Source of the DNA: Candidatus Woesebacteria bacterium GW2011_GWF1_31_35
GTDB lineage: Bacteria > Patescibacteriota > Microgenomatia > UBA8517
Direction: 5' to 3'
NCBI GenBank assembly: GCA_001029755.1
Contig: CP011214.1
Span: 777,258 to 819,458, forward strand
DNA: 42,201 nucleotides
Positions 1 to 42,201 of the stretch are shown piece after piece. The stretch's first letter is position 1, and each line of letters opens with the position of its first letter. The notes beneath the pieces were generated by a model, which was given only the letters and a program-made list of their open reading frames with translations, was not told where the DNA came from and did not search any database. Both the position numbers and the translations under genes were made by a program.

Positions 1-14
1 CTAAGATAAGAATA

Positions 15-947
15 CTAAAGATTAGTAAGTATTTCTTCATATTTTTTAGTAATTTTGTCCCAATCAAATTTTTCTGCTTGTTTCCTTGGTTTATCTTCCC
101 AATTTAAACTTAAGGCTTTTTCTAATTCTTTTGAATAACTATCGATATCCTCAGGGTCAGCAAATAAACCTGCATCACCACTAATTTCTTTTCTTATTGG
201 ATCATTAGTAACTACAACTGGTAAGTTAGTAGCCATTGCTTCAACTATTACATTCCCAAAAGATTCAGTTGGAGTAGAGGCAAGAGTAAACAGATTAACA
301 GATCTATAAACCTCAGGCATTTTTTCATATGGCATTTCAATAATTTGAAACCTATTAGAACCTAATAATTTATTACCTTTAATTTCAAGTTCATCTTTTA
401 AGTTTCCCCCACCTCCAGCAATAATTAAACTTACATTATCTAATTTTGAAACAGCATCAATTACCAAACCATGTCTTTTTTGTTCTGTAAAAGCTCCAAC
501 AGATAAAATAATTGGGCTTTTAAGATTAGTTTTAAATTTTTCTCCTTCTGGTTTAAATTTATTTATGTCAACTCCATTCGGAATATAAACAAGTTTTACA
601 AAAGGATTTACCTTTCTAGCCCAATTTAGGGCTTTTGAAGATAAAGCTACAAAATAATTTGGAAATGTACAAAGATTTATTCTATCATCTAATCCCTTTC
701 CGGATTGACCAGAGATAACAACTTTCGATCTTTTAAGCCAAGTTATAATTCTTACTAAAATAGCTTGTAATCTACCATTAGTTGGAATTATTAAATCGTA
801 ATCATTTTTTAACAAACTAAAATAGTTAACATCAGAAATAACATCAACTTTATGATTTTTAGAAAATCTTTTAGAAAGTTCTAATACGTAAGTTTCAGCA
901 CCTCTATTAACTTTGTTTTGGTATTTATTTAAAAATGCAATTTTCAT
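15..947 (-). CDS. Glycosyltransferase family 4-like (GT-B fold, retaining type)
   Basis: Intact 310-aa ORF. C-terminal ESFGNVIVEAMATNLPVVVT carries the E-x7-E signature of GT4 enzymes. The N-terminal MKIAFLN...RGAETYV is typical of a GT-B start. Confidence 0.75.
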   Translation of the reverse strand: MKIAFLNKYQNKVNRGAETYVLELSKRFSKNHKVDVISDVNYFSLLKNDYDLIIPTNGRLQAILVRIITWLKRSKVVISGQSGKGLDDRINLCTFPNYFVALSSKALNWARKVNPFVKLVYIPNGVDINKFKPEGEKFKTNLKSPIILSVGAFTEQKRHGLVIDAVSKLDNVSLIIAGGGGNLKDELEIKGNKLLGSNRFQIIEMPYEKMPEVYRSVNLFTLASTPTESFGNVIVEAMATNLPVVVTNDPIRKEISGDAGLFADPEDIDSYSKELEKALSLNWEDKPRKQAEKFDWDKITKKYEEILTNL

Positions 948-955
948 TAATTAAT

Positions 956-2215
956 TTAATTATTCTTACTACAAATTGAAACCCTTTCAGACATTTCTAC
1001 ACAATTATAAAATCTTTCTAAAAATACTTTCATCTCTTCCCAATTATAATCAGGTTTTGTACCAACTACTATTTGTTCTGGCATTTTTGTCTTTATATCA
1101 GAAAATATCTCTTCTTTAACATCTGGAACACTAAGGTACCAAGATAAATATGGGATCCATGGTTTAGTAACTGGCATTGAATCAGTTAATGCATAAATGT
1201 TGTCCCAATAATTTAGAACGAATATGTCATTATGGTTTGGGTTTAATATATTTAATTCAGTAGCCACATCTTTTACATCTTGCTCATAGAAACGAACTTC
1301 TCCACCCAAGTTTCGAGATAAAAACCTAATAAAGATTACCACAACGATTAAAATATAAAATAAAATTAATAATTTTTTAAATTTATCAGTTTTAAAAGAA
1401 AAACTTTTTAGGTTTGCTAAGGCTAATGCAAAAGAGATTGATAAAAAAGGAAGTGCTGGTTGAAAATGGAATAGACCCCACCTAGGATAAACCCCCATTA
1501 ACCCAGAGACTATCCAGGGAATAAGTGTCGGAGAAAAAATAGAAATGGTAAAAGGTAAAAATGCTAATCCAAGTTGTCTCAATGTAGGTAATACTACCTG
1601 GCCAGAAGCAGTGGGCAAATAAAACACACCAAACTTAATAGCCCAGAAATAAAAATCAGCTAAAATTCCAAAAGATAAGAGGGATAAAACAAACACAGTA
1701 AGTACTGCAACTAAACCAATCATAAATTTCTTAATAATTGGTACTAGATTTTTTTTGTTTTTAATATTTAGTAAAATCAGGGGAATTAAAAAATAAATAA
1801 ATGTTTGTTTTGTCAAAAAACCCAATGCAAACATAATTCCAGTTAATAAATACTTTTTTTTATTTATTAAATAGAAAAGTAATAATGCAAAAGGTACCAG
1901 TGCTAAATCGAACCAGAGACCATTACCTTCAAAGAGAAGTTGTATCGGAATGTAAAAGGCTAAAGCCAGAATTGCAGCATTTTTGTTGTAAATCTTTTTA
2001 GTAACCCAGAATAACAAATAATAATTAACTATTATTAAGGCCCAAGTAAAAATCTGTAGTTGGGTAATTCCAGTTCCAAACAATTTATAGAATAAAGTTA
2101 AAACAATAATTAACAAAGGATTATGGGCAATTGCTATGTCTTTATATGGAAGCCATCCATTTAAAATAAAATATGGCCAAGCAAGCATTTCGGGCCAAGC
2201 TGTAAACATTAACAT
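956..2215 (-). CDS. Polytopic membrane protein, GT-C-fold glycosyltransferase-like (PMT_2/ArnT type)
   Basis: 419 aa with many hydrophobic segments. Early-loop acidic motif PYKDIAIAHNP. The LGFLTKQTF motif recurs in paralogs across the window. About 110 aa of soluble C-terminal domain. Confidence 0.55.
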   Translation of the reverse strand: MLMFTAWPEMLAWPYFILNGWLPYKDIAIAHNPLLIIVLTLFYKLFGTGITQLQIFTWALIIVNYYLLFWVTKKIYNKNAAILALAFYIPIQLLFEGNGLWFDLALVPFALLLFYLINKKKYLLTGIMFALGFLTKQTFIYFLIPLILLNIKNKKNLVPIIKKFMIGLVAVLTVFVLSLLSFGILADFYFWAIKFGVFYLPTASGQVVLPTLRQLGLAFLPFTISIFSPTLIPWIVSGLMGVYPRWGLFHFQPALPFLSISFALALANLKSFSFKTDKFKKLLILFYILIVVVIFIRFLSRNLGGEVRFYEQDVKDVATELNILNPNHNDIFVLNYWDNIYALTDSMPVTKPWIPYLSWYLSVPDVKEEIFSDIKTKMPEQIVVGTKPDYNWEEMKVFLERFYNCVEMSERVSICSKNN

Positions 2216-2225
2216 AAATATAATT

Positions 2226-3467
2226 TTATCTTTTTTCTACCTCAATTGTATTATCACCCTTATTGTAGACGAAACTGTATTTTGAAGCTATTGTTTTATT
2301 GATAAATAAATCAATGGTTCCTGACTCTAACATTAAATTAGCATCTCTTTCTAAACTAATATCAGATATATTAATCTTTTTAATTTCGGGGTTAACATTA
2401 ATGTTTCCTTCTACACGAGAAACAACATTAAACATAGATACCTTTTGCCAATTAGGAAACTCCTGCCATGCAATTTTAGGTAAAATACTTCTTCCTCCAA
2501 ATATAAAAAGAATAAGAATATAAATTATTGATGTTTTTATATTCAACTTAGGTAAAAACATAGATAAATATATTAATAAATATCCGAAAGGCATATAAAT
2601 GTAATACATTTCTCTTCTATTAACCAAAAGTGACGCAGGTATTAATGTAATTAAACCAACAAGTAAAAGTGGCAAGTATTTATACTTTTTAGTAAGAATC
2701 GGAAGTAAAATTAAAAGAATTAATATTTTTATATCTACAAAATATAAAAATCCCCTAAACAAATCAACTACTTTAGAAGCTACTGTATATGAAAAGTTTG
2801 GTGTAAGTACCTTTTGTGTAATAAAAAAGTAACTGGCATAGATCCCATATAAAACTGAAATTCTAAATAAGTAATAGATCTTTTTTCTATCTAGCTTCTT
2901 GAAAAATGATATTGCAAAAAGAACCAAAGGAACTGTAAATGCAGTTTCTTTTGTAAAAAGGGCCAATATAAATGAAATAACACTTAAGTAGAATTTTTTA
3001 GGATAAGTTAAAAATAAGTAGATTGTTAAAAAACAAAACAGAGCAACTAAGTGTTCATGTATATTTGAATAATAGAAAAGATAATTTTTATTAAATATTA
3101 ATGATACAAAGAAAGCTGTAAAATCATTTTTAGTTAATTTTTTAACAATTAAAAATAAAATAATTAAATTAATAGTATTTGTTAAAAACATAAAAACATC
3201 AAACGCGTAGTTATTAGTACCAAATATTTTAAAAAGTGAACCAAAAAAAACGAAACCTGTTAATTTTCTAAAACCAAAAACATCTCCATTTATTAAAAAA
3301 TCAAAAGACATCTGTAAAATATTATGATTCTTTAAATAGGCTAAGACTGCGAAATCATCAACTGAAAAATAAGAGTTGGTTCTTAATCCAAAAATTAAAT
3401 ATCCCAAACTTAGAATAATAAGAGGAATAATAAATAAATATACCGAATTAAAGTATTTCTTAAACAT
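2226..3467 (-). CDS. Polytopic membrane protein, GT-C-fold glycosyltransferase-like
   Basis: 413 aa. TM1 is followed by YFSVDDFAVLAY (DD motif in the first loop). ALFTKETAF motif. Soluble C-terminal tail. The start ATG overlaps the upstream stop by 1 nt (TAATG on the minus strand). Confidence 0.55.
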   Translation of the reverse strand: MFKKYFNSVYLFIIPLIILSLGYLIFGLRTNSYFSVDDFAVLAYLKNHNILQMSFDFLINGDVFGFRKLTGFVFFGSLFKIFGTNNYAFDVFMFLTNTINLIILFLIVKKLTKNDFTAFFVSLIFNKNYLFYYSNIHEHLVALFCFLTIYLFLTYPKKFYLSVISFILALFTKETAFTVPLVLFAISFFKKLDRKKIYYLFRISVLYGIYASYFFITQKVLTPNFSYTVASKVVDLFRGFLYFVDIKILILLILLPILTKKYKYLPLLLVGLITLIPASLLVNRREMYYIYMPFGYLLIYLSMFLPKLNIKTSIIYILILFIFGGRSILPKIAWQEFPNWQKVSMFNVVSRVEGNINVNPEIKKINISDISLERDANLMLESGTIDLFINKTIASKYSFVYNKGDNTIEVEKR

Positions 3468-4303
3468 TAATAACCTACCTTGCTAAAAATTCTCCTGTTG
3501 ATTTTTCGAAATGGAGTTTCAACAACTGCTCTTGAAATATATTTAAATGATTTAGTTTTCCATGGAGAAGAAATAAACCCAGGTTTTCCTTTAAATAGAC
3601 TTTCAGGATAATAGAAATCAAGTGGAAATTTTTCTCCAAGTTCATATTTAAATTTAAGTTTTCTTTTTGGAACATTTAGATCATCAATTCTTCTTTCCCC
3701 TCTTGGAAGAAATGTTGTGTGTAAATATGGTGTATCTAATAATAATTGTTTATCTTCGTCTCTATCCTGTATCATTTGGTTTTCATCATCTACCCAACCC
3801 CAAACACCATGGACTCCTTGAGAATGTAATCCTGAAATTTTTTTGTTTATTGCCCTTAGGTTAAAATGTCCTGTTTTACCTTTAAACGTATACTTTCCAG
3901 CTTTTCCTTCTTGAAAATGAAAAATATCACCTACTAAATTTATTGTTGGAACAATTATAGATTCATGTTGGTCATTATCATTTCTAATTGTTTCAGTTAG
4001 TTTAATAATTTTTTCATCCCACCAAATTTCGTCAGCATCAACTACTAAAAACCAGTCAGAAGAGGTAGCATCAAGCATTTCTTGTCTTACTTTTGTAAAA
4101 GTCTTTGAAGTTACCTCTCCATACTCTTTAAGTTCAATTTTAGTAGGATATTTATTTTTAAGTAATGTTGCTATTTCCCAAGACCTATCAGTTGATCCAG
4201 TATCCCAAAGTAAAAGTTTATCAACATGGTTAATTACAGAAGTTACAGAATACCAAAGCCATCTTTCTTCGTTTTTGAATAAAGTATGAGCAAATATTTT
4301 CAT
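3467..4303 (-). CDS. Glycosyltransferase family 2-like (GT-A fold)
   Basis: 278 aa. N-terminal beta-strand followed by LLLWDTGSTDRS. The VVDADEIW acidic motif sits at the DxD position. No TM segments. Confidence 0.65.
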   Translation of the reverse strand: MKIFAHTLFKNEERWLWYSVTSVINHVDKLLLWDTGSTDRSWEIATLLKNKYPTKIELKEYGEVTSKTFTKVRQEMLDATSSDWFLVVDADEIWWDEKIIKLTETIRNDNDQHESIIVPTINLVGDIFHFQEGKAGKYTFKGKTGHFNLRAINKKISGLHSQGVHGVWGWVDDENQMIQDRDEDKQLLLDTPYLHTTFLPRGERRIDDLNVPKRKLKFKYELGEKFPLDFYYPESLFKGKPGFISSPWKTKSFKYISRAVVETPFRKINRRIFSKVGY

Positions 4304-4348: not shown

Positions 4349-6178
4349 ATGTGTGGAATCGCAGGGATAGCCTATTTTAATAATAAAAGAGAGGTTCATC
4401 TCCAAGAACTTAAATGTATGTCTGCTAAAATTGCCCACAGGGGTCCAGACGATGAGGGATTTTATATATCAAGAGATAGAAGTGTTGGATTAAACAATAG
4501 AAGACTTGCCATAATTGATCTTTCCAAAAAAGGTCATCAGCCAATGAAATATCAAAATCGCTTCGTAATTACTTTTAATGGAGAAATATATAACTACAAA
4601 GAATTAAAATTAAAACTTGAAAGGGAAGGCTATAAATTTAATTCAGACTCAGATACAGAAGTAATCTTAGCTTTATATGCAAAATACAAACAAGGATGTT
4701 TAAGATATTTAAGAGGTATGTTTGCATTTGCTATATATGATGAAATTGAAAAAACATTATTTCTAGCAAGAGACAGAATTGGTAAAAAACCCCTTAAATA
4801 CTCTTTAAATGAAAATGGAATTGTATTTGCATCAGAAATTAAAGCTATTCTAACCTACAAAAATATTAAAAAAGAAATAGATTATCTTTCATTACAAAAA
4901 TATTTTCTCTATGGTTATGTTCCTGCCCCTATGACAGGTTTTAAAAATATTAATAAATTAGAGCCAGGAAGTTATATATTTATGAATCTTAATAAAAAAA
5001 CCTACACTAAGAAAAGATATTGGCAACCAAGATTTAATAAAAAACTACAGTTATCTGAAAAAGAATGGTCTAGAAAAATTTTAGATACCCTAGAAGATTC
5101 TACAAAATTAAGAATGATATCTGACGTTCCAATAGGTGCTTTTCTATCAGGTGGGGTTGATTCAAGTGCTGTAGTTTCCATGATGGCTTTAAACTCCAAA
5201 AATCCTATAAAAACTTTTACCGTAACTTTTGAAAATCCAAAATATAATGAGAAAAAGTATGCCGACTTAATTGTCAAAAGATATAAAACAGACCACACTG
5301 AAATACTTGCAAAACCAACTTCTATTTCTAACTTACCTGAAATTGCCTATCAGTATGAAGAACCATTTGCAGACAATAGTTCTGTTGTATCTTTTATGGT
5401 TTCTAAAGAAGCAAGAAAACATGTAACTGTTACCTTAAATGGAGATGGAGGAGATGAAAATTTTGCAGGATATCCAAATCGTTATTTAAGACTTAAAAGA
5501 GATGTTGATTATGCTAAATGGATATCTAAGTTAAAACCCTTGACAGTATTAAAGATAAAAAGAGTTTCAAACTTTTTAGATAAATCAAAACTACCTTTAT
5601 ATGAAAGATTCACAAGTTATAGTCAAATTTTTTCTTTAAATGAAATTTTTACACTAACCAAAGGTGAACTTAAAGATACATTAACTTCAAAATGTTTATA
5701 TTCAAAAGCTAGAGAATGTTTTGAAAATTTTAAAGGTAGGGATTTAAAAGATGCAGGTTTAAAATTTGATTTACTTTATTTTTTGCCTGATCAGTTATTA
5801 ACAAAAATGGATATTGCTAGTATGAGATATTCTCTAGAAACAAGATCCCCCCTCTTAGATCAAAAGTTAATCGAACTTGCTTGCAAAATCCCTTTTAGTT
5901 TAAAAGTTAAAAACGGACAAACTAAATATATTTTTAAAAAAGCATTAGAAAAAATTGTGCCAAAAGAAAACCTATATAGACCCAAAATGGGTTTTACAAT
6001 TCCCCTCGAAGATTGGTTTAAGGGAGACATAAATTCATATACTAAAAGTGTACTTTTCTCCCAAAAAACAATTTTGAAGAATTTTTTTGATATAAGTAAA
6101 TTAAAAAATCAAAAGTTTAGCCAAAAGACTTGGTCACTGATAATGTTGGAGCTATGGTTAGAAGCATACTTAAAATAA
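4349..6178 (+). CDS. asnB: Asparagine synthase (glutamine-hydrolysing) family amidotransferase; probably a sugar or glycan amidotransferase in this context
   Basis: 609 aa. MCGIAGI start gives the Cys2 Ntn nucleophile. Also RRLAIIDLS, FNGEIYNY, SDTEVIL and the PP-loop FLSGGVDSS. Confidence 0.85.
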   Translation: MCGIAGIAYFNNKREVHLQELKCMSAKIAHRGPDDEGFYISRDRSVGLNNRRLAIIDLSKKGHQPMKYQNRFVITFNGEIYNYKELKLKLEREGYKFNSDSDTEVILALYAKYKQGCLRYLRGMFAFAIYDEIEKTLFLARDRIGKKPLKYSLNENGIVFASEIKAILTYKNIKKEIDYLSLQKYFLYGYVPAPMTGFKNINKLEPGSYIFMNLNKKTYTKKRYWQPRFNKKLQLSEKEWSRKILDTLEDSTKLRMISDVPIGAFLSGGVDSSAVVSMMALNSKNPIKTFTVTFENPKYNEKKYADLIVKRYKTDHTEILAKPTSISNLPEIAYQYEEPFADNSSVVSFMVSKEARKHVTVTLNGDGGDENFAGYPNRYLRLKRDVDYAKWISKLKPLTVLKIKRVSNFLDKSKLPLYERFTSYSQIFSLNEIFTLTKGELKDTLTSKCLYSKARECFENFKGRDLKDAGLKFDLLYFLPDQLLTKMDIASMRYSLETRSPLLDQKLIELACKIPFSLKVKNGQTKYIFKKALEKIVPKENLYRPKMGFTIPLEDWFKGDINSYTKSVLFSQKTILKNFFDISKLKNQKFSQKTWSLIMLELWLEAYLK

Positions 6179-6183: not shown

Positions 6184-7488
6184 TTATTTATCAAACCAAT
6201 AATATTTAATTACAATTAGCCAAGTATAAATAGCTAAAATTGTATTAGTAATTCCAAATGTTAAAGTTGGACCTATTGGGCCATATTTGGGAATAAAATA
6301 AAGATTAAGTAAAAATATTGCAGCAAGCTGGAAAAAACTAAAAGCTCCTATATAAACAGTTTTCTTCATAGCATATACAATTGCAGTAACAGATGGAGCT
6401 GTAAAAATAAATGGAATCATTGAAATAGTTAATGCTTGAAAAATTGGAACAGCACTTAAGTATTTATCTCCAAACAGAATGACAATAAAAGGTTTAGCTA
6501 TAACAACCCAAAGAACTAATCCAGCAATTATTGGAATTAAGGCAAGAGTTGCTTTAATAATATATTTTTTCTCCTGATCCTTATTATTAAAGCTAGCAAG
6601 TCTTGGAGCTAACACCCCTGAAAAACTTGATGTTAAAACAATTACAAAACCTGCAAGCCTATTGGGTATTGAATAAAGACCTGTAGCAACAGCTCCAGTC
6701 ATTACTGCAAGCATTTGAATATCAAGTCTTCCTGAAATAGATGAAATTATTCTATTTACTCCAATCCAACCTGAATATTTAATAAGTTTTTTATATGTTT
6801 CCCTAGTTGGTTTTGATTTTAGAAAATCTGGCTTTATTAAAATAATTCCCACTATTGTTCCTACAATTCCACCTAAAACAAACGATATTAGGGAGTTACC
6901 TATTGTAAGCCTTGCTAGAAACATAAAAACAAAAGCAAATCCAAGACGAGACAAGTAAAGTAGGTTATCAGCAATTATAGAATTCAAAAATTTCTTTTTG
7001 GCTTGAAGAATAAAAGGAACTAACATTGGGAGAGCAAGAGATAAAGTAACTACACCAGTTAAAATTGCAACCATAGGGTCATTGGTTGCCAAAAATTTAA
7101 CTGAAACAAACTTTGAAAAAATAATTACTAATAATGAAACTATCAGTGTAACGATTAAACGGATAACTGAAGATGCTTTAATATATTCTTTCGATAATTC
7201 AATTTTTCCACTTGCATCAGCTTCAGCTACAAAACTTACGGCTCCAGTTGAAATTCCCAAATCGGTAATTGACGTTAAGATAATTACTAAATTAACAGCT
7301 GCTGAAAAAATACCAAAATCATAAATAGAAAGTGCCCTCGCAATTATTAAAGTATAAACAAAACCTAAAAATGCAGAAAGCACATTTCCTCCAAAAAGAA
7401 TATAGGTATCTTTGGCCGTTGAAGAAAAAACCAACAGTTTTGCTTTATTTATATATTTTTTCATTAGTTTATTTATTAGTAAAACCAT
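6184..7488 (-). CDS. wzx: MOP-superfamily oligosaccharide/polysaccharide flippase (Wzx-like)
   Basis: 434 aa, about 12 hydrophobic helices. The N-terminus (AKDTYILFGGNVLSAFLGFVYTLIIARALSIYDFG) is typical of Polysacc_synt proteins. An alternative ATG at 7464 (MKKYINK) would remove the 20-nt overlap with the upstream gene. Confidence 0.65.
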   Translation of the reverse strand: MVLLINKLMKKYINKAKLLVFSSTAKDTYILFGGNVLSAFLGFVYTLIIARALSIYDFGIFSAAVNLVIILTSITDLGISTGAVSFVAEADASGKIELSKEYIKASSVIRLIVTLIVSLLVIIFSKFVSVKFLATNDPMVAILTGVVTLSLALPMLVPFILQAKKKFLNSIIADNLLYLSRLGFAFVFMFLARLTIGNSLISFVLGGIVGTIVGIILIKPDFLKSKPTRETYKKLIKYSGWIGVNRIISSISGRLDIQMLAVMTGAVATGLYSIPNRLAGFVIVLTSSFSGVLAPRLASFNNKDQEKKYIIKATLALIPIIAGLVLWVVIAKPFIVILFGDKYLSAVPIFQALTISMIPFIFTAPSVTAIVYAMKKTVYIGAFSFFQLAAIFLLNLYFIPKYGPIGPTLTFGITNTILAIYTWLIVIKYYWFDK

Positions 7489-16638: not shown

Positions 16639-16644
16639 CAAGAG

Positions 16645-28572: not shown

Positions 28573-28588
28573 ACAGTATATGTTTTAT

Positions 28589-34060: not shown

Positions 34061-35074
34061 TTATATAACATCATCTAACTTATCAGAAAGTAATAAGGGT
34101 TTCCATTGTGAAAAAGTATTTTCCAGTTTAGAAGCATTACAAAAAATAACATTATCAATGAGAAGCGTCGCTCTCCAAAGTGAATTGTAAATAGTAGGCG
34201 ATAAATAATTTTCCAATTTGTATATGACAGGTCTAGTCTGTGTAAGTATTCTCCAAATAATTTTTGGTAAATATAATGGTTTATATTTTAATTTCATTTT
34301 GTTATATAAGAGAATTGATATTTGTTTTAATGTAAGAGACTCTGTGCTTACATTAAATATTTCCCATCTTCTTGGTTTAGGAGGCTTATCAAGCATTAGA
34401 AGTACTGATTTTGCTGCGTCATCAACATGAACAAAACTAGACAGTCCTGGCCAATTCAAACGCATGAGCGGTGAATTTTTTTCAATGAGTCCTTTAAGAT
34501 AGTCAAAAAAACTATTTTTCCTTGGATCTTTTCCATAAACAGTAGGATATCTAATAATACTTAATTTAAATCCATGTTTAAGACAAGATTTTTGAACTAA
34601 TGTTTCTGCTGTTAACTTACTAAACCCATAATTATTTGTTGGTACTGGCGTAGCGTTTTCATTAAAAGTATTTTTACAATTTAATCTTCCACTCATTATT
34701 GCAGTTGTACTTATATGAACAAAGTGTGTTTTTGGTCCCAGACCTTTTAAACATTCCAATAAATTTCTTGTTCCAATATCATTGCATCTGTAATCTGAAG
34801 AGTATGTATCGGTATTTCCTGCAAGATGTATTACGATACTTGGAGATTTAATAATTGGTTTTAAATTTGCCTTGGTAACAAGATCTACTTTAATTGTCTT
34901 AACCATTAAATTCGAAAGTATTTTTCTTCCACTAGTTTCTAATTCACTATTTTTTTTCCAAATTAAACAAAGAATAGATGATGGTTTGTATTTCCTTACA
35001 AGTAATTTAACGACTCTTCTTCCGATAAAACCTGTTGCACCAGTTACAATAATCATCAAAAAGCAGTATATCAT
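34061..35074 (-). CDS. NAD-dependent epimerase/dehydratase (extended SDR) acting on a nucleotide sugar
   Basis: 337 aa. VTGATGFIGRRVV (GxxGxxG) and YGFSKLTAE (YxxxK). The likely start is the ATG at 35056 (MIIVTG). Confidence 0.75.
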   Translation of the reverse strand: MIYCFLMIIVTGATGFIGRRVVKLLVRKYKPSSILCLIWKKNSELETSGRKILSNLMVKTIKVDLVTKANLKPIIKSPSIVIHLAGNTDTYSSDYRCNDIGTRNLLECLKGLGPKTHFVHISTTAIMSGRLNCKNTFNENATPVPTNNYGFSKLTAETLVQKSCLKHGFKLSIIRYPTVYGKDPRKNSFFDYLKGLIEKNSPLMRLNWPGLSSFVHVDDAAKSVLLMLDKPPKPRRWEIFNVSTESLTLKQISILLYNKMKLKYKPLYLPKIIWRILTQTRPVIYKLENYLSPTIYNSLWRATLLIDNVIFCNASKLENTFSQWKPLLLSDKLDDVI

Positions 35075-35126: not shown

Positions 35127-35609
35127 ATGAAAATATTTATTAGACAAATAAAAATAATTGTATCTATTTTTTCATTTTTTTTTATAATTTTCCTAGTGTT
35201 ATCTTGGAGTTCGAATCCTAGTGCCCCCTTGCAATATAATTTAAAACGCATACAAGAAAAGGTCATTCTTAAATTAAGAATTACACCTCAAAGTAATTTA
35301 AAATATCAATTGAAATTATTAGATAAAAGACTAAATGAAATTATATTTATTATCGATATGAATGAACACTCATACATTTTAAAATCTTCATTAAGATATT
35401 CTACGACAGCTGGTCAAATTACTGAATATATACTCAAAAATAATATAGAAATAGATAATACCTCAATTTTATACATATTTAATAACCATCGTGAAATATT
35501 CCAAAACATAATTGATAATTATCCTAAGGGGCTAGACATGGAATGGAAATACATTCAAGATGATATAAATTATCTTGATATATACTCCAAAATGCTCATT
35601 AAAGATTAA
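35127..35609 (+). CDS. Small single-pass membrane protein, helical ectodomain (possibly DUF5667-like)
   Basis: 160 aa. N-terminal TM (IIVSIFSFFFIIFLVL), then PLQYNLKRIQEKVILKL...LKLLDKRLNEI. The stop lies 2 nt before the next gene's ATG. The family call is from memory and unverified. Confidence 0.3.
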   Translation: MKIFIRQIKIIVSIFSFFFIIFLVLSWSSNPSAPLQYNLKRIQEKVILKLRITPQSNLKYQLKLLDKRLNEIIFIIDMNEHSYILKSSLRYSTTAGQITEYILKNNIEIDNTSILYIFNNHREIFQNIIDNYPKGLDMEWKYIQDDINYLDIYSKMLIKD

Positions 35610-35611: not shown

Positions 35612-37279
35612 ATGAAAATAAGATTTCTTCAAATAAGTATTCTTATATTATTAATGGGAATATATTTTCTAGCTTTTTTATCAACATTTTCAAAAAAAGG
35701 AACTTTTTATATGGATGAGCCAGCAGTTGTTATGTCCAGTTTAAGTAAAAATCGAAGCATTTACAGTATTTTTAAAGATGCCGCTGGGATAGCCCAACCA
35801 CCATTGGAACATTTAATTAGAGAGAAAATATACCAACCAATCGGTGACAATTTAGGATTGTCTAAAACTTATCCAGAATTTTTTCATAGATTTTTATCAT
35901 TACTTTGGTGGTTATTACCTATTGGATATTTCAGTATTAACATCAAAAATTTTTCTAATAAAAAAAGGTTTATTGTACTTTTATCATTTCTATTAATAAT
36001 TTCGTCTGAGTTTTTTCGAAGTTATTTAACTGAAGCAAGACACTATTCAGCAATTGCTGCATCTTTTGCTACAATGATCATTGTCTTATTATCAGATAAT
36101 GTCCTCATCTACAAATTACGTTATCATTTTTTATTATTATCTTTAATACCACCATTATTACATATCATTTCTTTTCCATATTATCTAATTCTTGTATTTT
36201 ATTTTTTTTATAGATTTGCAGTTGAATCCTATAAAAAACAAAAAAAATATTTTTTCGACATGGTTACTCTTTTTTCTTTATATATAATATTTTCCATATG
36301 GATGTACCTACAGATAACTAACCTTAGTTCGCAGTGGCAACAGCCAAGTATTAATAATATTAATTTGATATACATTAATTCGAGGCTAAAGTGGACATTA
36401 GATTGGTTATTCTCTGGTACTATTTTTTATTTATTGTTCAAACTGATACCAAACATTATTAAGAGTCATCTAGTTCAATTTTTTGGTATTATTACCTTAT
36501 ATTATTTTGTAAACATAAGACAACTGTTCATTATTAAAAAAAATATTTTTGAAGTATCATCGACTTTTCTATTAATTACTTGTTGCATCTGGCCATTAAC
36601 AATAGCATTAGTTACATATAGAAGTGGAATGTTTTCTGGAGAAAGATATTCTATTGCAATACTGGTTATTATATTTTTCGGATTAAGTACATTCATAATT
36701 AATGTGATATATAAAATCAATAATTTAGGGGCTAAACAAACATCTCTAATTATCATCGGATTAACAACTATATTTTCAATATTAATAAACATATTACCAA
36801 TAGAAAACTTTTCACTTATGTCTGATGAAAATAAATTTGTTAAAGAAAATATTAATATTATTATTAACCCTGATAGTTATTTAATTTCTGACAATGGTTC
36901 TTATTCTACTTCTATATCTTTACTTTCAATTATTAATAAAGTTCCTTTCAATACAAACTATATTATGTGTCGATGGGGAACTTTTTATTCAGACGATGGT
37001 AAAAATAATATTAACGATTGGTTGTCAAATCACTCTAATAATAATATATATTTATTAACTACCGGAAACGCACTGACTGATAACAATGAGATTATATGGA
37101 AATCGGGCAATGAAACTTTGTATTTAATCAAATCTATAAATGAATCCGATCTCTGTAGTAAAAATGATTACCTACAAGTGAGTAAGTGCTATATTAGGTG
37201 TACAAAAGGTCTAGAGCCTAGCAGTGACAGAAGAAGTATTTTAGGAGTTATACCACACTTAGATATTTATCGTGAATAA
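35612..37279 (+). CDS. Polytopic membrane protein, GT-C-like
   Basis: 555 aa. TM1 then GTFYMDEPAVVMSS (DE motif in loop 1). About 10-12 hydrophobic helices and a soluble C-terminal domain of about 150 aa. The second shared motif is not clear. Confidence 0.4.
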   Translation: MKIRFLQISILILLMGIYFLAFLSTFSKKGTFYMDEPAVVMSSLSKNRSIYSIFKDAAGIAQPPLEHLIREKIYQPIGDNLGLSKTYPEFFHRFLSLLWWLLPIGYFSINIKNFSNKKRFIVLLSFLLIISSEFFRSYLTEARHYSAIAASFATMIIVLLSDNVLIYKLRYHFLLLSLIPPLLHIISFPYYLILVFYFFYRFAVESYKKQKKYFFDMVTLFSLYIIFSIWMYLQITNLSSQWQQPSINNINLIYINSRLKWTLDWLFSGTIFYLLFKLIPNIIKSHLVQFFGIITLYYFVNIRQLFIIKKNIFEVSSTFLLITCCIWPLTIALVTYRSGMFSGERYSIAILVIIFFGLSTFIINVIYKINNLGAKQTSLIIIGLTTIFSILINILPIENFSLMSDENKFVKENINIIINPDSYLISDNGSYSTSISLLSIINKVPFNTNYIMCRWGTFYSDDGKNNINDWLSNHSNNNIYLLTTGNALTDNNEIIWKSGNETLYLIKSINESDLCSKNDYLQVSKCYIRCTKGLEPSSDRRSILGVIPHLDIYRE

Positions 37280-37287: not shown

Positions 37288-38064
37288 TTATATAATATTC
37301 CCAATAATTTTTCTTCCAAGATTATTAAATTTATGTAATATTAGCACAAATATATTTTTTGTATATTTTTTTACAATTTCTTCGTCATTTTCCAATATTT
37401 CATTAAAAAGTCTTTTAGTTTTTGTGGATGATTCTATCCTAAATTTAGATAAATATTTATCTATAACAACTGGCATTTTATCTTTTCCAATTTTCAACCA
37501 CATTTCATATTCCATAACAAAATATTCTGTCCCACAAAATAATCCATATTTCGTTAAAGCTTTTTTTGTCAAAAATACTGAAGGTTGCATTAAATAATTA
37601 GTTATTAGCAAACGTTTGAAGTTATTACATTTTAAAAGCATATTTTTGTAAATTGTAACTAGTTTTACTATCTCATTTCCCATTTCATTAATTACCCTCC
37701 CCTTTCCTACAAACCACAATATATCAGTGTTTTCAATATAATTATTTGCAACTAGTTTGAAAGAATCTTTTTCATATACATCGTCTGCATTTATAAAGGT
37801 AATAATGTCTCCAGTAGATTTTTTTAAACCCTTGTTAATTGCATCCAACTGTCCATTGTCTCTTTTAGATTCTAGTTTAATAATATTGGGGTGTTCATAT
37901 AAATAATCTTTAATTATTTTTAATGTTCCATCTGTAGAACCACCATCTTGAATAATAACTTCTAAATTTTCATATTTTTGATCAAAAATTGAATCTAGTG
38001 TTTCTTGAATATATTTAACTTTATTATATGAAGGAATAACAACAGAAATTTTTGGAAGTTTCAT
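37288..38064 (-). CDS. Glycosyltransferase family 2
   Basis: 258 aa. ISVVIPSYNKVKYIQETLDSIFDQ, VIIQDGGSTDGT, TFINADDVY. Confidence 0.8.
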   Translation of the reverse strand: MKLPKISVVIPSYNKVKYIQETLDSIFDQKYENLEVIIQDGGSTDGTLKIIKDYLYEHPNIIKLESKRDNGQLDAINKGLKKSTGDIITFINADDVYEKDSFKLVANNYIENTDILWFVGKGRVINEMGNEIVKLVTIYKNMLLKCNNFKRLLITNYLMQPSVFLTKKALTKYGLFCGTEYFVMEYEMWLKIGKDKMPVVIDKYLSKFRIESSTKTKRLFNEILENDEEIVKKYTKNIFVLILHKFNNLGRKIIGNII

Positions 38065-38387
38065 TTTTTCATTAAAGCATCTCTACGAATTAAATCTTCT
38101 AACTTCTTTTCAATCTTTTTAGTTTTTAAATATAAAATTGCAACCATTGAAATAACAAGAATAAAACCTCCTGCAATTAATAAATCTAAAAGCCTTGAAA
38201 CAGCAAATGCTTGGCTATAAGTACGAAGTATCTCTGGAAAGATAACTGCTAGAATTACCAATGTCCAAATAACAAGCCATGTCGCAATTTCCATTCCATT
38301 AAGACTACCTTTTTTATAATGCACAATTGAAAGATAAATCATTAAAAGAGCAAATATAAAACCAGTGATTTGTAATCCTATTATCAT
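38061..38387 (-). CDS. Small 3-4 TM membrane protein, DUF2304-like
   Basis: 108 aa, hydrophobic helices plus a charged C-terminal helix (KKIEKKLEDLIRRD). Sandwiched between two GT2 genes with a 4-nt overlap downstream and a 7-nt gap upstream. The family call is from memory of the typical DUF2304/GT2 pairing. Confidence 0.5.
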   Translation of the reverse strand: MIIGLQITGFIFALLMIYLSIVHYKKGSLNGMEIATWLVIWTLVILAVIFPEILRTYSQAFAVSRLLDLLIAGGFILVISMVAILYLKTKKIEKKLEDLIRRDALMKK

Positions 38388-38394: not shown

Positions 38395-39066
38395 TTATTT
38401 TAAAGTTAGCTTCCAATAAAACAAGTTTCCTAATACTCCCAAAGCATCTATAATACTAACTCCCTTATAATTATCATAGTATACTGTCTCCACTGAAACC
38501 TCGCAATGACTTAGGCCTCTCTTTTTAGTTCTAATCACCATTTCAGTTTCCACCCCATAACCAGTCGAATCCCATTTAATCTTTTTATAACCTTTTTGGG
38601 TTAATCCTCTAAATCCACATATTAAATCCGACACGTAAATACCAAACATAAATCCAACTAAGACTGAAGCAAGTTTATTACCCATATAACGATCGAGTGG
38701 TACACCAAAATTTAAATTTCTAGAACCAAAAACTATATCAAACTTACCAGTTTCTAATTTTTCAACAAACTTATTTAAATCTGAAACTTTATGTTGTCCA
38801 TCAGAATCCATATATATAACGGCATCAGCCCCTTTATTAAAAGCATAATCAGAACCAGTTTTCAAAACCGCACCTTTACCTAAATTAATTTTGTGTCCTA
38901 AAAGAGTTACATTTTTTAATTTCGCTTCTCTAATCTTTTTTTGTGACCCATCAGTGCTTCCATCATCAATAACAACAATTGGATATTTAGTTTTTGAAAT
39001 TTCTTTTAATACCCCAATAACTTTACTTTCTTCGTTATAGACTGGAATGACTATATATATTTTCAT
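38395..39066 (-). CDS. Short soluble GT2, polyprenyl-phosphate sugar synthase-like (DPM1 type)
   Basis: 223 aa. IVIPVYNEESKV, VVIDDGSTDGS, IYMDSDGQH, ICGFRG. Confidence 0.75.
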   Translation of the reverse strand: MKIYIVIPVYNEESKVIGVLKEISKTKYPIVVIDDGSTDGSQKKIREAKLKNVTLLGHKINLGKGAVLKTGSDYAFNKGADAVIYMDSDGQHKVSDLNKFVEKLETGKFDIVFGSRNLNFGVPLDRYMGNKLASVLVGFMFGIYVSDLICGFRGLTQKGYKKIKWDSTGYGVETEMVIRTKKRGLSHCEVSVETVYYDNYKGVSIIDALGVLGNLFYWKLTLK

Positions 39067-39069
39067 TTA

Positions 39070-40011
39070 TTATTTATTTTCTGTATACCAATCAATTGTA
39101 TTTTTTAAACCTTTTTCAAAAGTAGTTTTGGCGCTAAATCCAAATTCTTTTTGTGCCATAGATATGTCTAATTTCCTTTTTGGTTGCCCATCTGGTTTTG
39201 TTTTGTCCCAAGAAAGTTTTCCTTTAAAGCCTGTTAATTTCTTAATTAACTGTGCCAAATCTTTAATTGATATTTCAAACGCTGATCCCAAGTTTACTGC
39301 GTCAGGTTTATCATATCTTTCGCAAGCTAAAAGTATTCCCTCAACCGCATCTTCCACATATAAAAACTCTCGAGTAGGTTTTCCTGTACCCCAAACAACA
39401 ACTTCTTTGTCATTATTTTGTTTTGCTTCAACGAACTTTTTAATTAATGCTGGGATTACATGAGACGACTTAGGATTGAAATTATCTCCAGGTCCATACA
39501 AGTTAACGGGGAGTAAAAATATTGAATTAAAACCATATTGGTCTCTACACGCAGTAGATTGTACTAATTGCATCTTCTTAGCCAGACCGTATGGAGCGTT
39601 TGTCTCTTCAGGATACCCATTCCAAAGATTAGTTTCTGTAAATGGTATGGGTGTAAATTTAGGATATGCACATATTGTTCCCAAGGCTAAATATTTTTTA
39701 ACCTTATTTATCCTTGCAGCCTTCATCATAAAGGTTCCCATTAAAATATTATCTTCAAAAAGATCTGCAGGGAATTCTCTATTAAACCCAATTCCTCCTA
39801 CTTTTGCAGCTAAATGAATTACAACATCAATATCCTTAGTAGCTTTTAAACAATCTTCATATTTTCTCAAATCATATTTATTAATATCTGCTATACGAAC
39901 AAGTTTTGGATTAAGTTCTTTTAATTTTTTAACTAAATAACTTCCTAGAAATCCATTCCCACCAGTAATTAATACTCTTTTATTCTTCCAATATTTTTTA
40001 TTTAAATTCAT
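39070..40011 (-). CDS. fcl: GDP-L-fucose synthase-like (GDP-4-keto-6-deoxymannose 3,5-epimerase/4-reductase)
   Basis: 313 aa. VLITGGNGFLGSYL, ICAYPKFTPIPFTETNLWNGYPEETNAPYGLAKKM (YxxxK), VWGTGKPTREFLYVEDAVEGI. Confidence 0.75.
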   Translation of the reverse strand: MNLNKKYWKNKRVLITGGNGFLGSYLVKKLKELNPKLVRIADINKYDLRKYEDCLKATKDIDVVIHLAAKVGGIGFNREFPADLFEDNILMGTFMMKAARINKVKKYLALGTICAYPKFTPIPFTETNLWNGYPEETNAPYGLAKKMQLVQSTACRDQYGFNSIFLLPVNLYGPGDNFNPKSSHVIPALIKKFVEAKQNNDKEVVVWGTGKPTREFLYVEDAVEGILLACERYDKPDAVNLGSAFEISIKDLAQLIKKLTGFKGKLSWDKTKPDGQPKRKLDISMAQKEFGFSAKTTFEKGLKNTIDWYTENK

Positions 40012-40041
40012 AGATATTTTTATTTTTTTTAAATTAGACTT

Positions 40042-41130
40042 TTACGATAAAAAATAACCATTCACAAACAACATCTGGGCAACTAAAAGAATTATACTAA
40101 GAATTACATAAATTCCAAGCTTTAATAATTTAGGAAGTTTTGAAACTTCTTGAGCTAAAAAGAAAAATGCTGGAAAGATAACTAAAACATAACGAGGAAG
40201 AGACGAAAAACTTCCTGAAAGTGTTGGAATTAAATAGGCTAAGACTAAAAATATCCAATATTTGATATCTAACTTCTTAAAACTAATAAATATTAAGGCT
40301 AAAAACAAAACTGCAATAGTTATTTCTAAAATAGTAGTAAAAACTACTGGAAAATAACTCCAAGTTAGATTTGGAATGATCTTTACAAAATATCTATAAA
40401 AGACTTGAGGTAACATTATTAGGTGATCTGATCGCTGCTCTCCAAACCCACTGGCTGAATTGAAAAATTTTAAATAATCTCCCCAAGTTATATATGAATA
40501 GTACATATAACTTAAAAGCCCTAATGGAACTAGTAATATAAAATTGATTCTCTTTTTAATAAATACATATAAATAAACTAAAACTATACCTATTATTCTT
40601 GTAGCTGATGAAAACATTCCTAAAATTCCTGATAATAAATACTTTTCTTTCCTAAAAAAGTAAAATGACCAAACAACAAGTGTTAAAAATAAGCTTTCTG
40701 TGTAGACTCCAGCAAAATAAAATGAGGTGGGGAAGAGTAGTAATAGGATTATGGCAAGTTTTGAAATTTTTTCTGAATAATCCAATTTTGCCAACTTATA
40801 CATTCCAAAAAGTGCCAATAAAAAGCTTAAATTTGATATTGTCAATCCTCCCCAAATCCCCTCCCCTAAAATTTTAACAAGTAGGGGATAGAGTGGAAAA
40901 AAAGCTTGTTCCCCTCCCCCATACCCCATTTTTGCAATTGATAAATAATGTTCCCCATCAAAGTTGGCCCAACTCCAAAGATAAGGATTAGATAAATATT
41001 TTCCCATTCCCCCACCTAAAAAATTATTTTGAAGTTTAAAAAAAAATGGAGCTAAGAATATGGGGATAAATAAAAGTATTCTCCAAACAAGAAAACTTTT
41101 TAAGATAAATAACTTTTCATCCCTGTTCAT
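40042..41130 (-). CDS. GT-C mannosyltransferase-like membrane protein (PIG-V / Mannosyl_trans2-like)
   Basis: 362 aa. WANFDGEHYLSIAKMGYGGGEQAFFPLYPLL matches the PIG-V-family loop motif. About 8-9 hydrophobic helices. Confidence 0.6.
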   Translation of the reverse strand: MNRDEKLFILKSFLVWRILLFIPIFLAPFFFKLQNNFLGGGMGKYLSNPYLWSWANFDGEHYLSIAKMGYGGGEQAFFPLYPLLVKILGEGIWGGLTISNLSFLLALFGMYKLAKLDYSEKISKLAIILLLLFPTSFYFAGVYTESLFLTLVVWSFYFFRKEKYLLSGILGMFSSATRIIGIVLVYLYVFIKKRINFILLVPLGLLSYMYYSYITWGDYLKFFNSASGFGEQRSDHLIMLPQVFYRYFVKIIPNLTWSYFPVVFTTILEITIAVLFLALIFISFKKLDIKYWIFLVLAYLIPTLSGSFSSLPRYVLVIFPAFFFLAQEVSKLPKLLKLGIYVILSIILLVAQMLFVNGYFLS

Positions 41131-42172
41131 ATATGTCTAGTGTTTCTTTTGCAGTTTTTTCCCAACTAAAGTCTTTAATTCTTATTAAACCATTGCTAAT
41201 TAATTTTTGTCTTAAATCACTATTACTTAATATTTCATTTATCTTTTCTACTAAATCATCTGTACTCTGAGTATCAAAATACAAACATGCATCACCACCA
41301 ACTTCTACTAAAGCCTGTGTTTTCCCAGCAATAACAGGGCAACCTGCAGCAAAAGCATGAATTATAGAAAGACCAAAACCTTCATAGCAAGAAGGTTGGA
41401 CTAATACGCTAGCTATGTTTAATACTTTATTTGCCTCTTCATCAGTAATATAACCTAATCTTCTTACCTTATTGGAATTAATTAAGGTCTCATAAACAGG
41501 TTTTAAATGAATTAATTCTGGATGGTTTAAATCCATTGTTTCAATCTCTTTTATTTGTTTACCAGCAATAACAAGTAGAATATTTAATTTCTCACATGCC
41601 TTAACTAGTGTAGGAACGTTTTTATTGTAATTAATATCTCCAAAATAAAAAATAAATTTTTCAGGCAATTTAAAAACATTTTGGGATTGAACTTTTTTAT
41701 CACGTAGTGACAAAATTTGTTTATATTCTTTCTTTGAACCTAAATAAATTACGTGTACGATTTTTGGATCAACTCCTAAAAATCTACAAATGTCTTTTTT
41801 AGAGGTTTCAGAAATTGTAATTATCTTATCAACATATAATTTCACTAATAACTTGTTAATTAAAAAATTTACTTTTCCTTTAATTCCTGACTTATAAACC
41901 TTAGGGTAAATTAAGGGAATTAAATCATGAATCGTTAAAACAAATTTCGTACCTTTTGGTTTAGTAAACGGTAGTGAAATAAAAAATGGTCTAAAAGAGG
42001 TAAAGTGAATAACATTATAATGTCTATTTTTATCTATTTTTGAATCTATCTGAATGTCGTTTTTATTCTTAATCTCTATATCTAAAGCTTTAATAAGCTC
42101 ATTTGTATGAACTCCAATACCCCTAACTGCATCCTCATTACTTGAACTTCCACTCTGAATAGCAATCTGCAT
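41117..42172 (-). CDS. Glycosyltransferase family 4-like (GT-B fold)
   Basis: 351 aa. QPSCYEGFGLSIIHAFAAGCPVIAGK is a GT4 E-x7-E region with His at the second position. First gene of the terminal minus-strand block. Confidence 0.8.
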   Translation of the reverse strand: MQIAIQSGSSSNEDAVRGIGVHTNELIKALDIEIKNKNDIQIDSKIDKNRHYNVIHFTSFRPFFISLPFTKPKGTKFVLTIHDLIPLIYPKVYKSGIKGKVNFLINKLLVKLYVDKIITISETSKKDICRFLGVDPKIVHVIYLGSKKEYKQILSLRDKKVQSQNVFKLPEKFIFYFGDINYNKNVPTLVKACEKLNILLVIAGKQIKEIETMDLNHPELIHLKPVYETLINSNKVRRLGYITDEEANKVLNIASVLVQPSCYEGFGLSIIHAFAAGCPVIAGKTQALVEVGGDACLYFDTQSTDDLVEKINEILSNSDLRQKLISNGLIRIKDFSWEKTAKETLDIYEQG

Positions 42173-42201
42173 ATGCAGTAATTATACCTCAAATATGATA
42201 A

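Follow-up and report, generated by a model that had tools for sequence, protein, structure and literature searches.

What does a bacterium build with a gene cluster in which nearly every readable product handles sugars, and does the layout of the cluster follow any known pathway? The question is raised by a 42,201-bp stretch of the genome of Candidatus Woesebacteria bacterium GW2011_GWF1_31_35 (contig CP011214.1), the whole of which is called the window here. The organism belongs to the Candidate Phyla Radiation (CPR, Patescibacteria), whose members are ultra-small, mostly uncultivated, and minimal in metabolism; for many of them, a life attached to other cells is assumed. The window contains 40 non-nested open reading frames (ORFs), numbered g01 to g40 by position, whose union covers 98.2% of the sequence at a GC content of ~28%. 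The minus strand carries 31 of the genes and the plus strand the other nine, and 16 junctions overlap. Neither a tRNA (ARAGORN) nor an RNA family (Rfam) was detected in the window, and none of the 40 ORFs is a housekeeping gene. An original prediction, made from the sequence without database searches, described 40 ORFs of 98% coding density in which no housekeeping gene interrupts the glycan genes, and the Pfam census agrees.

Pfam scans covered all 40 window products. Seven glycosyltransferases (GTs) of family GT2, which have the GT-A fold, were found (g04, g16, g25, g27, g28, g35, and g37), together with three of the GT-B fold (g01, g19, and g40). Eight polytopic proteins are GT-C-like (g02, g03, g08, g09, g23, g30, g34, and g39), three of which (g02, g08, and g09) match PMT_2 above the Pfam threshold. 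Thus, the predicted three GT-B and eight GT-C-like proteins stand, and the predicted eight GT-A enzymes are seven. The remainder comprises ~10 methyltransferases of S-adenosylmethionine (SAM)-dependent or FkbM types (8 firm and 2 weak), the export genes Wzm (g14), Wzt with a Wzt_C domain (g15), and a Wzx-type flippase (g06), and a sugar-nucleotide and tailoring set made up of DegT (g10), FdtA (g11), two short-chain dehydrogenase/reductase (SDR) proteins (g32 and g38), AsnB (g05), and a CapA-like protein (g22). A DUF2304 protein (g36) is the small membrane partner. The claim that all ORFs with readable motifs serve glycan assembly is borne out; g12 and g13 remain without assignment and g21, g22, and g33 have weak or generic matches, none of the five being a housekeeping protein.

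Are the eight polytopic proteins really glycosyltransferases? Hydropathy analysis gives 7-15 hydrophobic segments per protein, and the original prediction read them as GT-C enzymes rather than as transporters or Wzy/WaaL proteins. Profile comparison by hhalign was made against a reference profile of 17 PMT_2-type paralogs from the ~115-kb region that surrounds the window. Among single proteins, g08, g03, and g02 matched this profile at 98.5%, 97.0%, and 96.0%, respectively, and the g23, g34, and g30 families matched it at 98.0%, 91.2%, and 95.6%. The g30 family profile also matched the g23 family at 94.6%. The region's own Wzx, Wzm, and Wzy_C proteins served as negative controls and reached 0.1-1.8%. 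Searches of the PDB by sequence, with single g23, g30, and g34 proteins or with family profiles of g23, g34, and g39, returned nothing useful, so a comparison of folds was needed.

Fold-level evidence came from AlphaFold models of g23 and g34 built from homologue alignments. Both models are helical bundles, with mean predicted local distance difference test (pLDDT) values of 91.7 and 89.4. In Foldseek searches, the top 20 PDB matches of g23 and the top 10 of g34 are all GT-C proteins. The confident matches include ALG12, ArnT, ALG9, STT3/PglB/AglB, DPY19, AftA/AftB/AftD, Pmt4, and EmbC; WaaL, Wzy, SEDS, or transporter proteins are not among them. The best structural matches are ArnT (GT83; PDB 5ezm and 5f15) and ALG9/ALG12 (PDB 9s6s, 9s6t, and 9s6u), with a probability of 1.00 and template-modeling (TM) scores of 0.38-0.55. 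The acidic motif of the first outer loop is common to these enzymes and to g23 and g34. They differ in sequence, with an identity of 10-14% and no sequence-level PDB match even by family profile, and their C-terminal outer domains are unlike those of g34 and the Cys-rich one of g23.

The acidic motif extends to the other polytopic proteins. In family alignments, invariant first-outer-loop acidic residues are D149/E150 in g23, D35/E36 in g34 (after the first transmembrane segment, TM1), D47 in g30, and D58 in g39, within the motifs DE (g23 and g34), DPD (g30), and NFDG (g39). The proteins g02, g03, g08, and g09, too, carry acidic residues following TM1. The family of g39 is large (9,501 representatives), and of 37 homologues sampled, 13 match PIG-V, 6 match PMT_2, and 2 match GT87; g39 itself lies slightly below the Pfam PIG-V cutoff (Table 1). 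The PMT_2 matches, the hhalign results with their controls, the Foldseek matches, and the shared first-loop acidic motif together indicate that all eight polytopic proteins are of GT-C type, with glycosyltransferase activity predicted. Transporter and Wzy/WaaL identities were rejected in view of the hhalign controls and the Foldseek results.

GT-C enzymes of this kind were expected in the original prediction to use polyprenyl-phosphate sugars. The presence of two candidate synthases, g27 and g37, points to a putative polyprenyl-phosphate-linked donor for these GT-Cs. The best PDB match of g27 is the dolichyl-phosphate mannose (Dol-P-Man) synthase of Pyrococcus (P. furiosus; 5mlz, E 1.8e-11), followed by ArnC, and NCBIfam-level comparison also finds it AglJ/Dol-P-hexose transferase-like. 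The second candidate, g37, is PpgS-like, and the DUF2304 gene g36 starts 8 nt downstream of it on the same strand. A GT2 gene directly followed by a DUF2304 gene is the hallmark of GacI/GacJ, WpsA/WpsB, and EpaI/EpaJ, which provide undecaprenyl-phosphate N-acetylglucosamine for the decoration of wall rhamnan (PMC8327497), and g37-g36 has exactly this arrangement. The accompanying idea that most sugars are added outside the membrane is too strong, as the window holds 8 GT-Cs against ~8 cytoplasmic GTs.

Export and sugar-nucleotide genes complete the inventory. Both Wzm and Wzt are encoded in the window, and a second Wzx copy lies outside it. The GT2-methyltransferase fusion g16 directly follows wzt and is a candidate elongation or capping enzyme. 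The genes for FdtA (g11) and DegT (g10) are adjacent, with overlapping ORFs, and the gene for RmlB, the supplier of dTDP-4-keto-6-deoxyglucose, lies at the other extreme of the region. The expectation of an FdtA/DegT pair and of a fucose-synthase-like gene holds at the level of family. The AsnB-type protein g05 probably carries out sugar-acid amidation.

How far does the cluster extend? Starting from the window, the contig was extended in both directions by searching public assemblies, among them the groundwater metagenome assemblies ENA ERZ28563639 (scaffold_16), NCBI GCA_035291365.1, and several JGI assemblies, for identical proteins, and the pieces were merged with zero mismatches in all overlaps. 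Retrieved contig pieces and loci carry L-numbers (L001, L006, and so on) with coordinates of their own. Glycan genes run on for ~21 kb past window position 1 and for ~52 kb past position 42201. The whole region, of which the window is the middle, is ~115.5 kb, or 14.1% of a genome that appears to be 819,458 bp long. The region contains ~31 GT-C-like genes, the 8 of the window and ~23 outside.

The stretch past position 1 carries GT-C, GT2, and GT4 genes, a hexapeptide acyltransferase, a ManC-like nucleotidyltransferase, and genes for Wzy_C, Bac_transf, and DUF4012 proteins, and it ends at RecO followed by dcw cell-division genes (MraZ/RsmH/PBP). The Wzy_C protein lies ~10 kb past position 1 (36.5 bits; L006:11401-12747) and the Bac_transf phosphoglycosyltransferase (PGT) ~18 kb past it (200.9 bits; L006:19491-20144). 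No Pfam match to Bac_transf, Glycos_transf_4, Wzy_C, Wzz, Wza, or TagF occurs inside the window, so the predicted absence of Wzz, Wza, and TagF is confirmed there. A PGT and Wzy/WaaL-type proteins had also been declared missing. This holds for the 42-kb window, which has no initiating transferase for the ABC route, and fails for the uninterrupted cluster to which the window belongs. In other words, the apparent absence of a primer and a Wzy protein is due to where the window was cut, and a priming PGT, which the flanks had been expected to reveal if present, was found there. The search was also extended to Wzz/GNVR, which had no match among the window proteins or in the gene tables of the flanks. 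A side observation concerns the DUF4012 protein (646 aa, single TM; L008:10688-12628), which is encoded directly after the priming PGT at the region end and could be a chain-length or attachment factor.

On the other side, a stretch ~0.1-3 kb past position 42201 (L001:7041-9958) carries PhdYeFM/ParE and AbiEii/DUF6922 toxin-antitoxin pairs and two short-chain dehydrogenases; this stretch could be the border between two modules or a hotspot of recombination. In the next ~43 kb there are ~20 GT-C-like genes for polytopic proteins, seven of them tandem paralogs (pairwise E ~1e-45 to 1e-94), along with a second Wzx, a GT2-GtrA fusion, and further genes of the GT2, GT4, and methyltransferase types. 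Two PMT_2 GT-C genes flank a Bro-N-like gene (weak Pfam match; L010:1413-2240), the starts and stops of which overlap with theirs. Then follow TrmD, RmlD, RmlC, an RmlB fusion, and a GalU-like gene, and the region ends at secreted CAP/LTD/M73 proteins. The RmlB fusion (638 aa, minus strand; L012:13699-15615) matches RmlB, dTDP-glucose 4,6-dehydratase, over residues 1-323 (381 bits, over cutoff), and its C-terminal half of ~315 aa has no family assignment. A PglF-like identity for this protein was rejected, the protein being RmlB fused to an extra C-terminal half. The neighboring NTP_transferase was likewise rejected as RmlA and is GalU-like; the nucleotidyltransferases seen in the region are this protein and the ManC-like one, with no clear RmlA. 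The GC content is 28-29% in the glycan region and 31-32% in the genes on either side of it, which encode housekeeping and secreted proteins, a gap too small to argue for recent transfer of a foreign island. Six groundwater metatranscriptome runs contained none of the sequence words sampled, and their coverage over window positions 14000-30000 was nil, which says nothing about expression either way.

Does the layout fit a known scheme? The original prediction held that it fits no canonical pathway, and here it does not stand, because the scheme matches that of the Gram-positive rhamnose-type loci with their ABC exporter, GacI/GacJ pair, Wzx, and GT-C enzymes (PMC8327497). These loci (gacA-L of Streptococcus pyogenes, cwps WpsA-J of Lactococcus lactis, and epa of Enterococcus faecalis; PMC8327497) share with the region an ABC exporter of the RgpC/D-GacD/E type, a GT2-DUF2304 pair (GacI/GacJ, WpsA/WpsB, and EpaI/EpaJ, like g37-g36), a Wzx-type flippase (GacK and WpsG, like g06), extracytoplasmic polytopic transferases (GacL and WpsI/WpsJ, like the GT-Cs here), and Rml genes. 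The differences are of scale and of detail. Rhamnose-type loci have 1-5 GT-Cs in ~20-30 kb, whereas the window has 8 and the region ~31 in ~115 kb, and the ~10 methyltransferases of the window set it apart. Their primer is TagO/WecA rather than a small Bac_transf, the region has no LCP ligase, there is no ortholog-level similarity, and the host here is a CPR bacterium with a ~0.82-Mb genome. A characterized syntenic locus, which would have explained the gene set, was not found. By analogy, then, the layout is best described as an enlarged Gram-positive dual-chain wall-polysaccharide scheme that also recalls mycobacterial GT-C logic, and it is not unprecedented.

The mycobacterial likeness concerns arabinogalactan and the lipoglycans lipomannan and lipoarabinomannan (LM/LAM), in which many GT-Cs elongate the glycan outside the membrane from few polyprenyl-phosphate donors (polyprenyl-phosphate mannose, PPM, and decaprenyl-phosphate arabinose, DPA), as proposed here. 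Mycobacteria also have PpgS Rv3631 with Rv3632, and Rv3779, and the window has the PpgS-like g37 with a small membrane partner. The mycobacterial genes are dispersed, in contrast to the contiguous genes here, and the region lacks Emb/Aft-type domains and phosphatidylinositol-anchor genes; TM-scores of AftA, AftB, AftD, and Emb to the g23 and g34 models are only 0.2-0.4. Gtr systems (GtrA/GtrB/GtrC and lactococcal CsdAB) likewise pair a GT2 polyprenyl-phosphate-sugar synthase with an outside polytopic transferase. They differ in having the GtrA flippase (PF04138), which is found in 0 of the 40 window proteins and was seen only fused to a GT2 ~45 kb away (L011:1154-2275), and in that transferases far outnumber synthases in the region here. 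The window also resembles the ABC-dependent O-antigens O8/O9a of Escherichia coli, in which a carbohydrate-binding domain of Wzt goes with a methyl or phospho-methyl cap added by WbdD, and the S-layer glycan system of Geobacillus stearothermophilus with its methyltransferase-GT WsaE, in that Wzt here has a Wzt_C domain and a GT-methyltransferase fusion is encoded beside wzt; the kinase and coiled-coil ruler of WbdD (O8/O9a) are absent from g16.

A model consistent with this gene content, and probably correct in outline, is that the region is one ~115-kb system for a cell-surface glycopolymer that combines three known lipid-carrier routes. In the first route, GT-A and GT-B enzymes (g16, g19, g25, and others) would build a chain on a polyprenyl carrier in the cytoplasm. 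The chain would be O-methylated by several methyltransferases and exported by Wzm/Wzt (g14/g15), the C-terminal domain of Wzt appearing to be of the type that recognizes capped chain ends and g16 being a candidate for the capping enzyme. In the second, g27 and g37 with g36 would load sugars onto polyprenyl phosphate, the loaded sugars would be flipped, possibly by the Wzx-type g06, and the eight GT-Cs would decorate or extend the exported polymer outside the membrane. The third would be a Wzx/Wzy_C route, with the primer Bac_transf and Wzy_C as putative polymerase or ligase, encoded in the region outside the window. As for unusual sugars, FdtA/DegT would convert the product of RmlB to a 3-amino-3,6-dideoxyhexose, the fucose-synthase-like g38 would supply another sugar, and the AsnB-type enzyme would carry out amidation. 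The donor sugars, the order of the steps, and the pairing of GT-Cs with donors are presumed in this model, and we infer that the acceptor is a wall-linked polysaccharide.

Several observations weigh against the one-system model. There are only ~4-5 candidate polyprenyl-phosphate-sugar synthases for ~31 GT-C-like proteins, and no LCP ligase, WecA/TagO, stand-alone GtrA, Gmd, or RmlA was seen in the ~115-kb region. The region may make several separate products rather than one. Moreover, the neighborhoods in a sister species differ, so the functional unity of the 115 kb is presumed.

The g23 family was also used to search genomes that each represent a species. Full-length relatives of g23 were found only in metagenome-assembled genomes (MAGs) of CPR bacteria (Woese-, Gottesman-, Ames-, Pace-, and Yanofskybacteria); matches in Nitrospirota and related groups cover the N-terminal core only. 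A core comprising g27 (synthase), g26 (FkbM), g25 (GT2), g23 (GT-C), and g19 (GT-B), followed by Wzt-Wzm, is conserved across Microgenomates and was seen by gene-order comparison in L014-L017, L020, L022, L026, and L078. In L015, the gene order follows that of g33 to g23 and also that of g19, g18, and g12-g10, and L026 keeps the skeleton g40-g39-g37-g36-g35...g27...g23...g09-g07 within 22 kb. In the sister species (74% identity), the core adjoins different sugar-nucleotide genes and a transaldolase, and g16 is represented by two genes, a methyltransferase (319 aa) and a GT2 (343 aa), in the same place by wzt (L078:18176-20168). Because the core is conserved and its neighbors differ among relatives, the region appears modular, with an old core and lineage-specific additions. 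Loci of CPR type were also seen in third-party annotation (TPA) MAGs titled "uncultured Gammaproteobacteria" or "Pseudomonadales" (L014, L018-L020, L022, L023, L027, L029, and L032-L034), with window-gene homologues of up to 50-61% identity; these titles are probably taxonomic mislabels.

The strongest alternative is a possible one that is clearly less probable than a single system: glycan loci that are independent of one another (of ABC type, of Wzx/Wzy type, and Gtr-like decoration cassettes) would have accumulated at one recombination-prone site and make different or strain-variable surface glycans, for example in evading recognition by phage or host. In its favor, the region has a single PGT and a single Wzm/Wzt but two Wzx, modules are separated or interrupted by toxin-antitoxin pairs and a Bro-N-like gene, and GC content is slightly lower than in the flanks. 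The sister species has only the core module with other neighbors, and in L026 the shared skeleton takes up 22 kb. Yet the FdtA/DegT pair of the window depends on the product of RmlB, which is encoded at the region's far end, only a single PGT and a single Wzy_C were found in the whole region, and identical proteins in ~85-110 assembly blocks indicate a stable population.

Could the glycan be destined for proteins rather than for a wall polysaccharide? The acceptor would be an S-layer protein, a pilin, or a TasA/camelysin-like fiber; Wzy_C would act as an O-oligosaccharyltransferase for the ABC-exported, methyl-capped glycan, and the PMT_2-type GT-Cs would O-glycosylate Ser/Thr. This explanation is somewhat less probable still. 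The S-layer glycan pathway of G. stearothermophilus uses WsaP, Wzm/Wzt, WsaE, and WsaB, and the Bac_transf, Wzm/Wzt, GT-methyltransferase fusion, Rml genes, and single Wzy_C found here amount to the same parts list. Several GT-Cs match PMT or PMT_2 models; Pfam PMT_2, however, includes ArnT-like lipid and glycan transferases, so these matches do not bear on a protein acceptor, and the number of GT-Cs is better suited to stepwise polymer building than to protein priming. The flanks had been proposed as a place to look for acceptors. Secreted proteins do adjoin the region end, among them an M73/TasA-like protein and a signal-peptidase/LTD fusion whose tail is rich in Ser/Pro/Thr, but no S-layer gene or pilin lies within the region, and the link to an acceptor consists of proximity alone.

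The conserved core invites a more specific proposal, which is unlikely as it stands. The region would be a Microgenomates-wide, lineage-specific route to a wall glycopolymer with g27-g26-g25-g23-g19...Wzt-Wzm as its core, in which g27 and the FkbM methyltransferase always found beside it, g26, would make an O-methylated polyprenyl-phosphate sugar, the lineage-restricted g23 (635-655 aa) would act outside the cell to add that sugar to the chain exported by the ABC transporter, or to ligate the chain, and GT-C paralogs would have expanded around the core. If so, the surface glycan would be the largest single genetic investment of the organism and a likely determinant of host attachment or phage evasion. 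Least probable of all is a membrane-anchored lipoglycan like mycobacterial LM/LAM, in which GT-Cs would extend a glycolipid primer outside the membrane with no link to peptidoglycan; the dominance of GT-Cs with polyprenyl-phosphate-sugar synthases, the likeness of the PpgS-like GT2 and its small membrane partner to Rv3631/Rv3632, and the lack of an LCP ligase in the region speak for it, but PimA/PimB-type and phosphatidylinositol-related genes are absent from the region, large Emb/Aft-type C-terminal domains are missing, and Wzm/Wzt, Bac_transf, and Wzy_C indicate polyprenyl-diphosphate-linked intermediates.

What is new, then, in a proposed wall-glycopolymer system of this kind? Every part belongs to a known class, and nothing is categorically new. 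The novelty lies in the extreme concentration of GT-Cs, in the Microgenomates-restricted GT-C families g23, g34, and g30, none of which has a sequence-level match to a solved structure, and in the conserved synthase-methyltransferase-GT-C module. The genome of Mycobacterium tuberculosis, five times the size, encodes fewer GT-C enzymes. A literature search found no paper on such loci in CPR bacteria, which is not proof that none exists. The concentration of ~14% of a ~0.82-Mb genome in one glycan region with ~31 GT-C-like proteins suggests a complex, probably heavily O-methylated surface glycan that is central to the biology of the organism, and the conserved core module offers a small, testable entry point.

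Table 1. The 40 ORFs of the window, with window positions. Percentages are hhalign matches to the PMT_2 paralog profile; TM, transmembrane segments.
Gene	Assignment	Position	Strand	Basis
g01	GT4 (GT-B) glycosyltransferase	15..947	-	Pfam Glycos_transf_1, 91 bits
g02	GT-C, PMT_2 type, 7+ TM	956..2215	-	Pfam PMT_2, 38 bits; 96%; acidic loop-1 motif
g03	GT-C-like, 8 TM	2226..3467	-	No Pfam match; 97%; VDD after TM1
g04	GT2	3467..4303	-	Pfam Glycos_transf_2
g05	AsnB-type glutamine amidotransferase	4349..6178	+	Asn_synthase, 298 bits; TIGR01536, 479 bits, over cutoff
g06	Wzx/MOP-type flippase	6184..7488	-	Polysacc_synt, 93.7 bits; 13 hydrophobic segments
g07	SAM methyltransferase	7469..8224	-	Pfam Methyltransf_11
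g08	GT-C (PMT/PMT_2)	8316..9839	+	PMT_2, 41.5 bits; PMT, 35.5 bits; 98.5%
g09	GT-C (PMT_2)	9887..11446	-	Pfam PMT_2, 39 bits
g10	DegT/FdtB-type sugar aminotransferase	11355..12458	-	DegT_DnrJ_EryC1, 360 bits
g11	FdtA-type 3,4-ketoisomerase	12455..12874	-	Pfam FdtA, 138 bits
g12	Soluble protein	12844..13830	-	No Pfam, NCBIfam, or PDB match; collinear with g11-g10 in L015
g13	Soluble protein	13853..14455	-	No match in family or PDB searches
g14	Wzm ABC-2 permease	14546..15388	+	ABC2_membrane, 61 bits
g15	Wzt ATPase with C-terminal glycan-binding domain	15385..16638	+	ABC_tran, 88 bits; Wzt_C, 41.9 bits, over cutoff; TagH/Wzt-like
g16	GT2-methyltransferase fusion	16645..18576	+	Glycos_transf_2, residues 7-127; Methyltransf_23, 420-562
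g17	SAM methyltransferase	18589..19296	-	Pfam
g18	SAM methyltransferase	19316..20044	-	Pfam
g19	CgeB-like GT-B	20075..21190	-	Glyco_trans_1_2, 111 bits; next to g23 in relatives too
g20	Small methyltransferase-like protein	21187..21729	-	Weak Methyltransf_11 match
g21	Weakly AsnB/NAD-synthase-like (PP-loop)	21707..23263	-	NCBIfam E ~2e-3 only; no PDB match
g22	CapA/PGA_cap metallophosphoesterase-like	23260..24420	-	PGA_cap, 148 bits
g23	GT-C, 655 aa, Microgenomates-restricted family, Cys-rich outer C-terminal domain	24410..26377	-	AlphaFold and Foldseek
g24	SAM methyltransferase	26418..26993	+	Pfam
g25	GT2	26979..27794	-	Glycos_transf_2, 94.5 bits
g26	FkbM methyltransferase	27769..28572	-	Methyltransf_21, 66 bits; beside g27 homologues in 6 genomes
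g27	Polyprenyl-phosphate hexose synthase-like GT2, 4 C-terminal TM	28589..29641	-	PDB match 5mlz; TM prediction
g28	GT2 with weak N-terminal methyltransferase-like region	29817..31085	+	Pfam
g29	FkbM methyltransferase	31094..31822	-	Methyltransf_21, 82 bits
g30	GT-C-like, 9 TM, narrow family (11 homologues)	31810..33357	-	Family profile; DPD and HPGTP motifs
g31	SAM methyltransferase	33344..34057	-	Methyltransf_11, 72 bits
g32	SDR epimerase/reductase	34061..35074	-	Pfam Epimerase, 104 bits
g33	Small single-TM protein, partner of g34	35127..35609	+	Weak DUF5667; homologue in L015 and L016 neighborhoods
g34	GT-C, narrow Patescibacteria family (24 homologues)	35612..37279	+	AlphaFold and Foldseek
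g35	GT2	37288..38064	-	Pfam, 109 bits
g36	DUF2304 small membrane protein (GacJ/WpsB type)	38061..38387	-	DUF2304, 66 bits; PMC8327497
g37	PpgS/GacI-like polyprenyl-phosphate sugar synthase GT2	38395..39066	-	NCBIfam PpgS, 100 bits, under cutoff
g38	GDP-L-fucose synthase-like SDR	39070..40011	-	NF047922, 283 bits, under cutoff of 500
g39	PIG-V-like GT-C, 8 TM	40042..41130	-	PIG-V, 21.7 bits; cutoff 22.4
g40	GT4 (GT-B)	41117..42172	-	Glycos_transf_1, 95 bits

A few further observations concern genes at the region end and around g23. Beside the region end, L012:16833-20651 encodes two CAP-domain proteins, an M73/camelysin (TasA-like) protein, and a 459-aa protein in which an LTD domain is followed by a Ser/Pro/Thr-rich tail (SSSSPSPTPIPEVFPTPTLSPSPSPEPSPT). 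The N-terminus of the latter looks signal-peptidase-like by eye, with no domain match, and its tail is a possible O-glycosylation target. The g23-type GT-C is single-copy in the window, and 2-3 tandem diverged copies occur in Gottesmanbacteria, Amesbacteria, and other relatives (L016:9986-13739, L017:9995-16151, L020:4466-13968, and L022:9998-13619). Finally, g20, g21, and g22 are chained to g23 by overlaps (window 21187-24420); the sister species (74% identity) has all three, and more distant relatives lack them.

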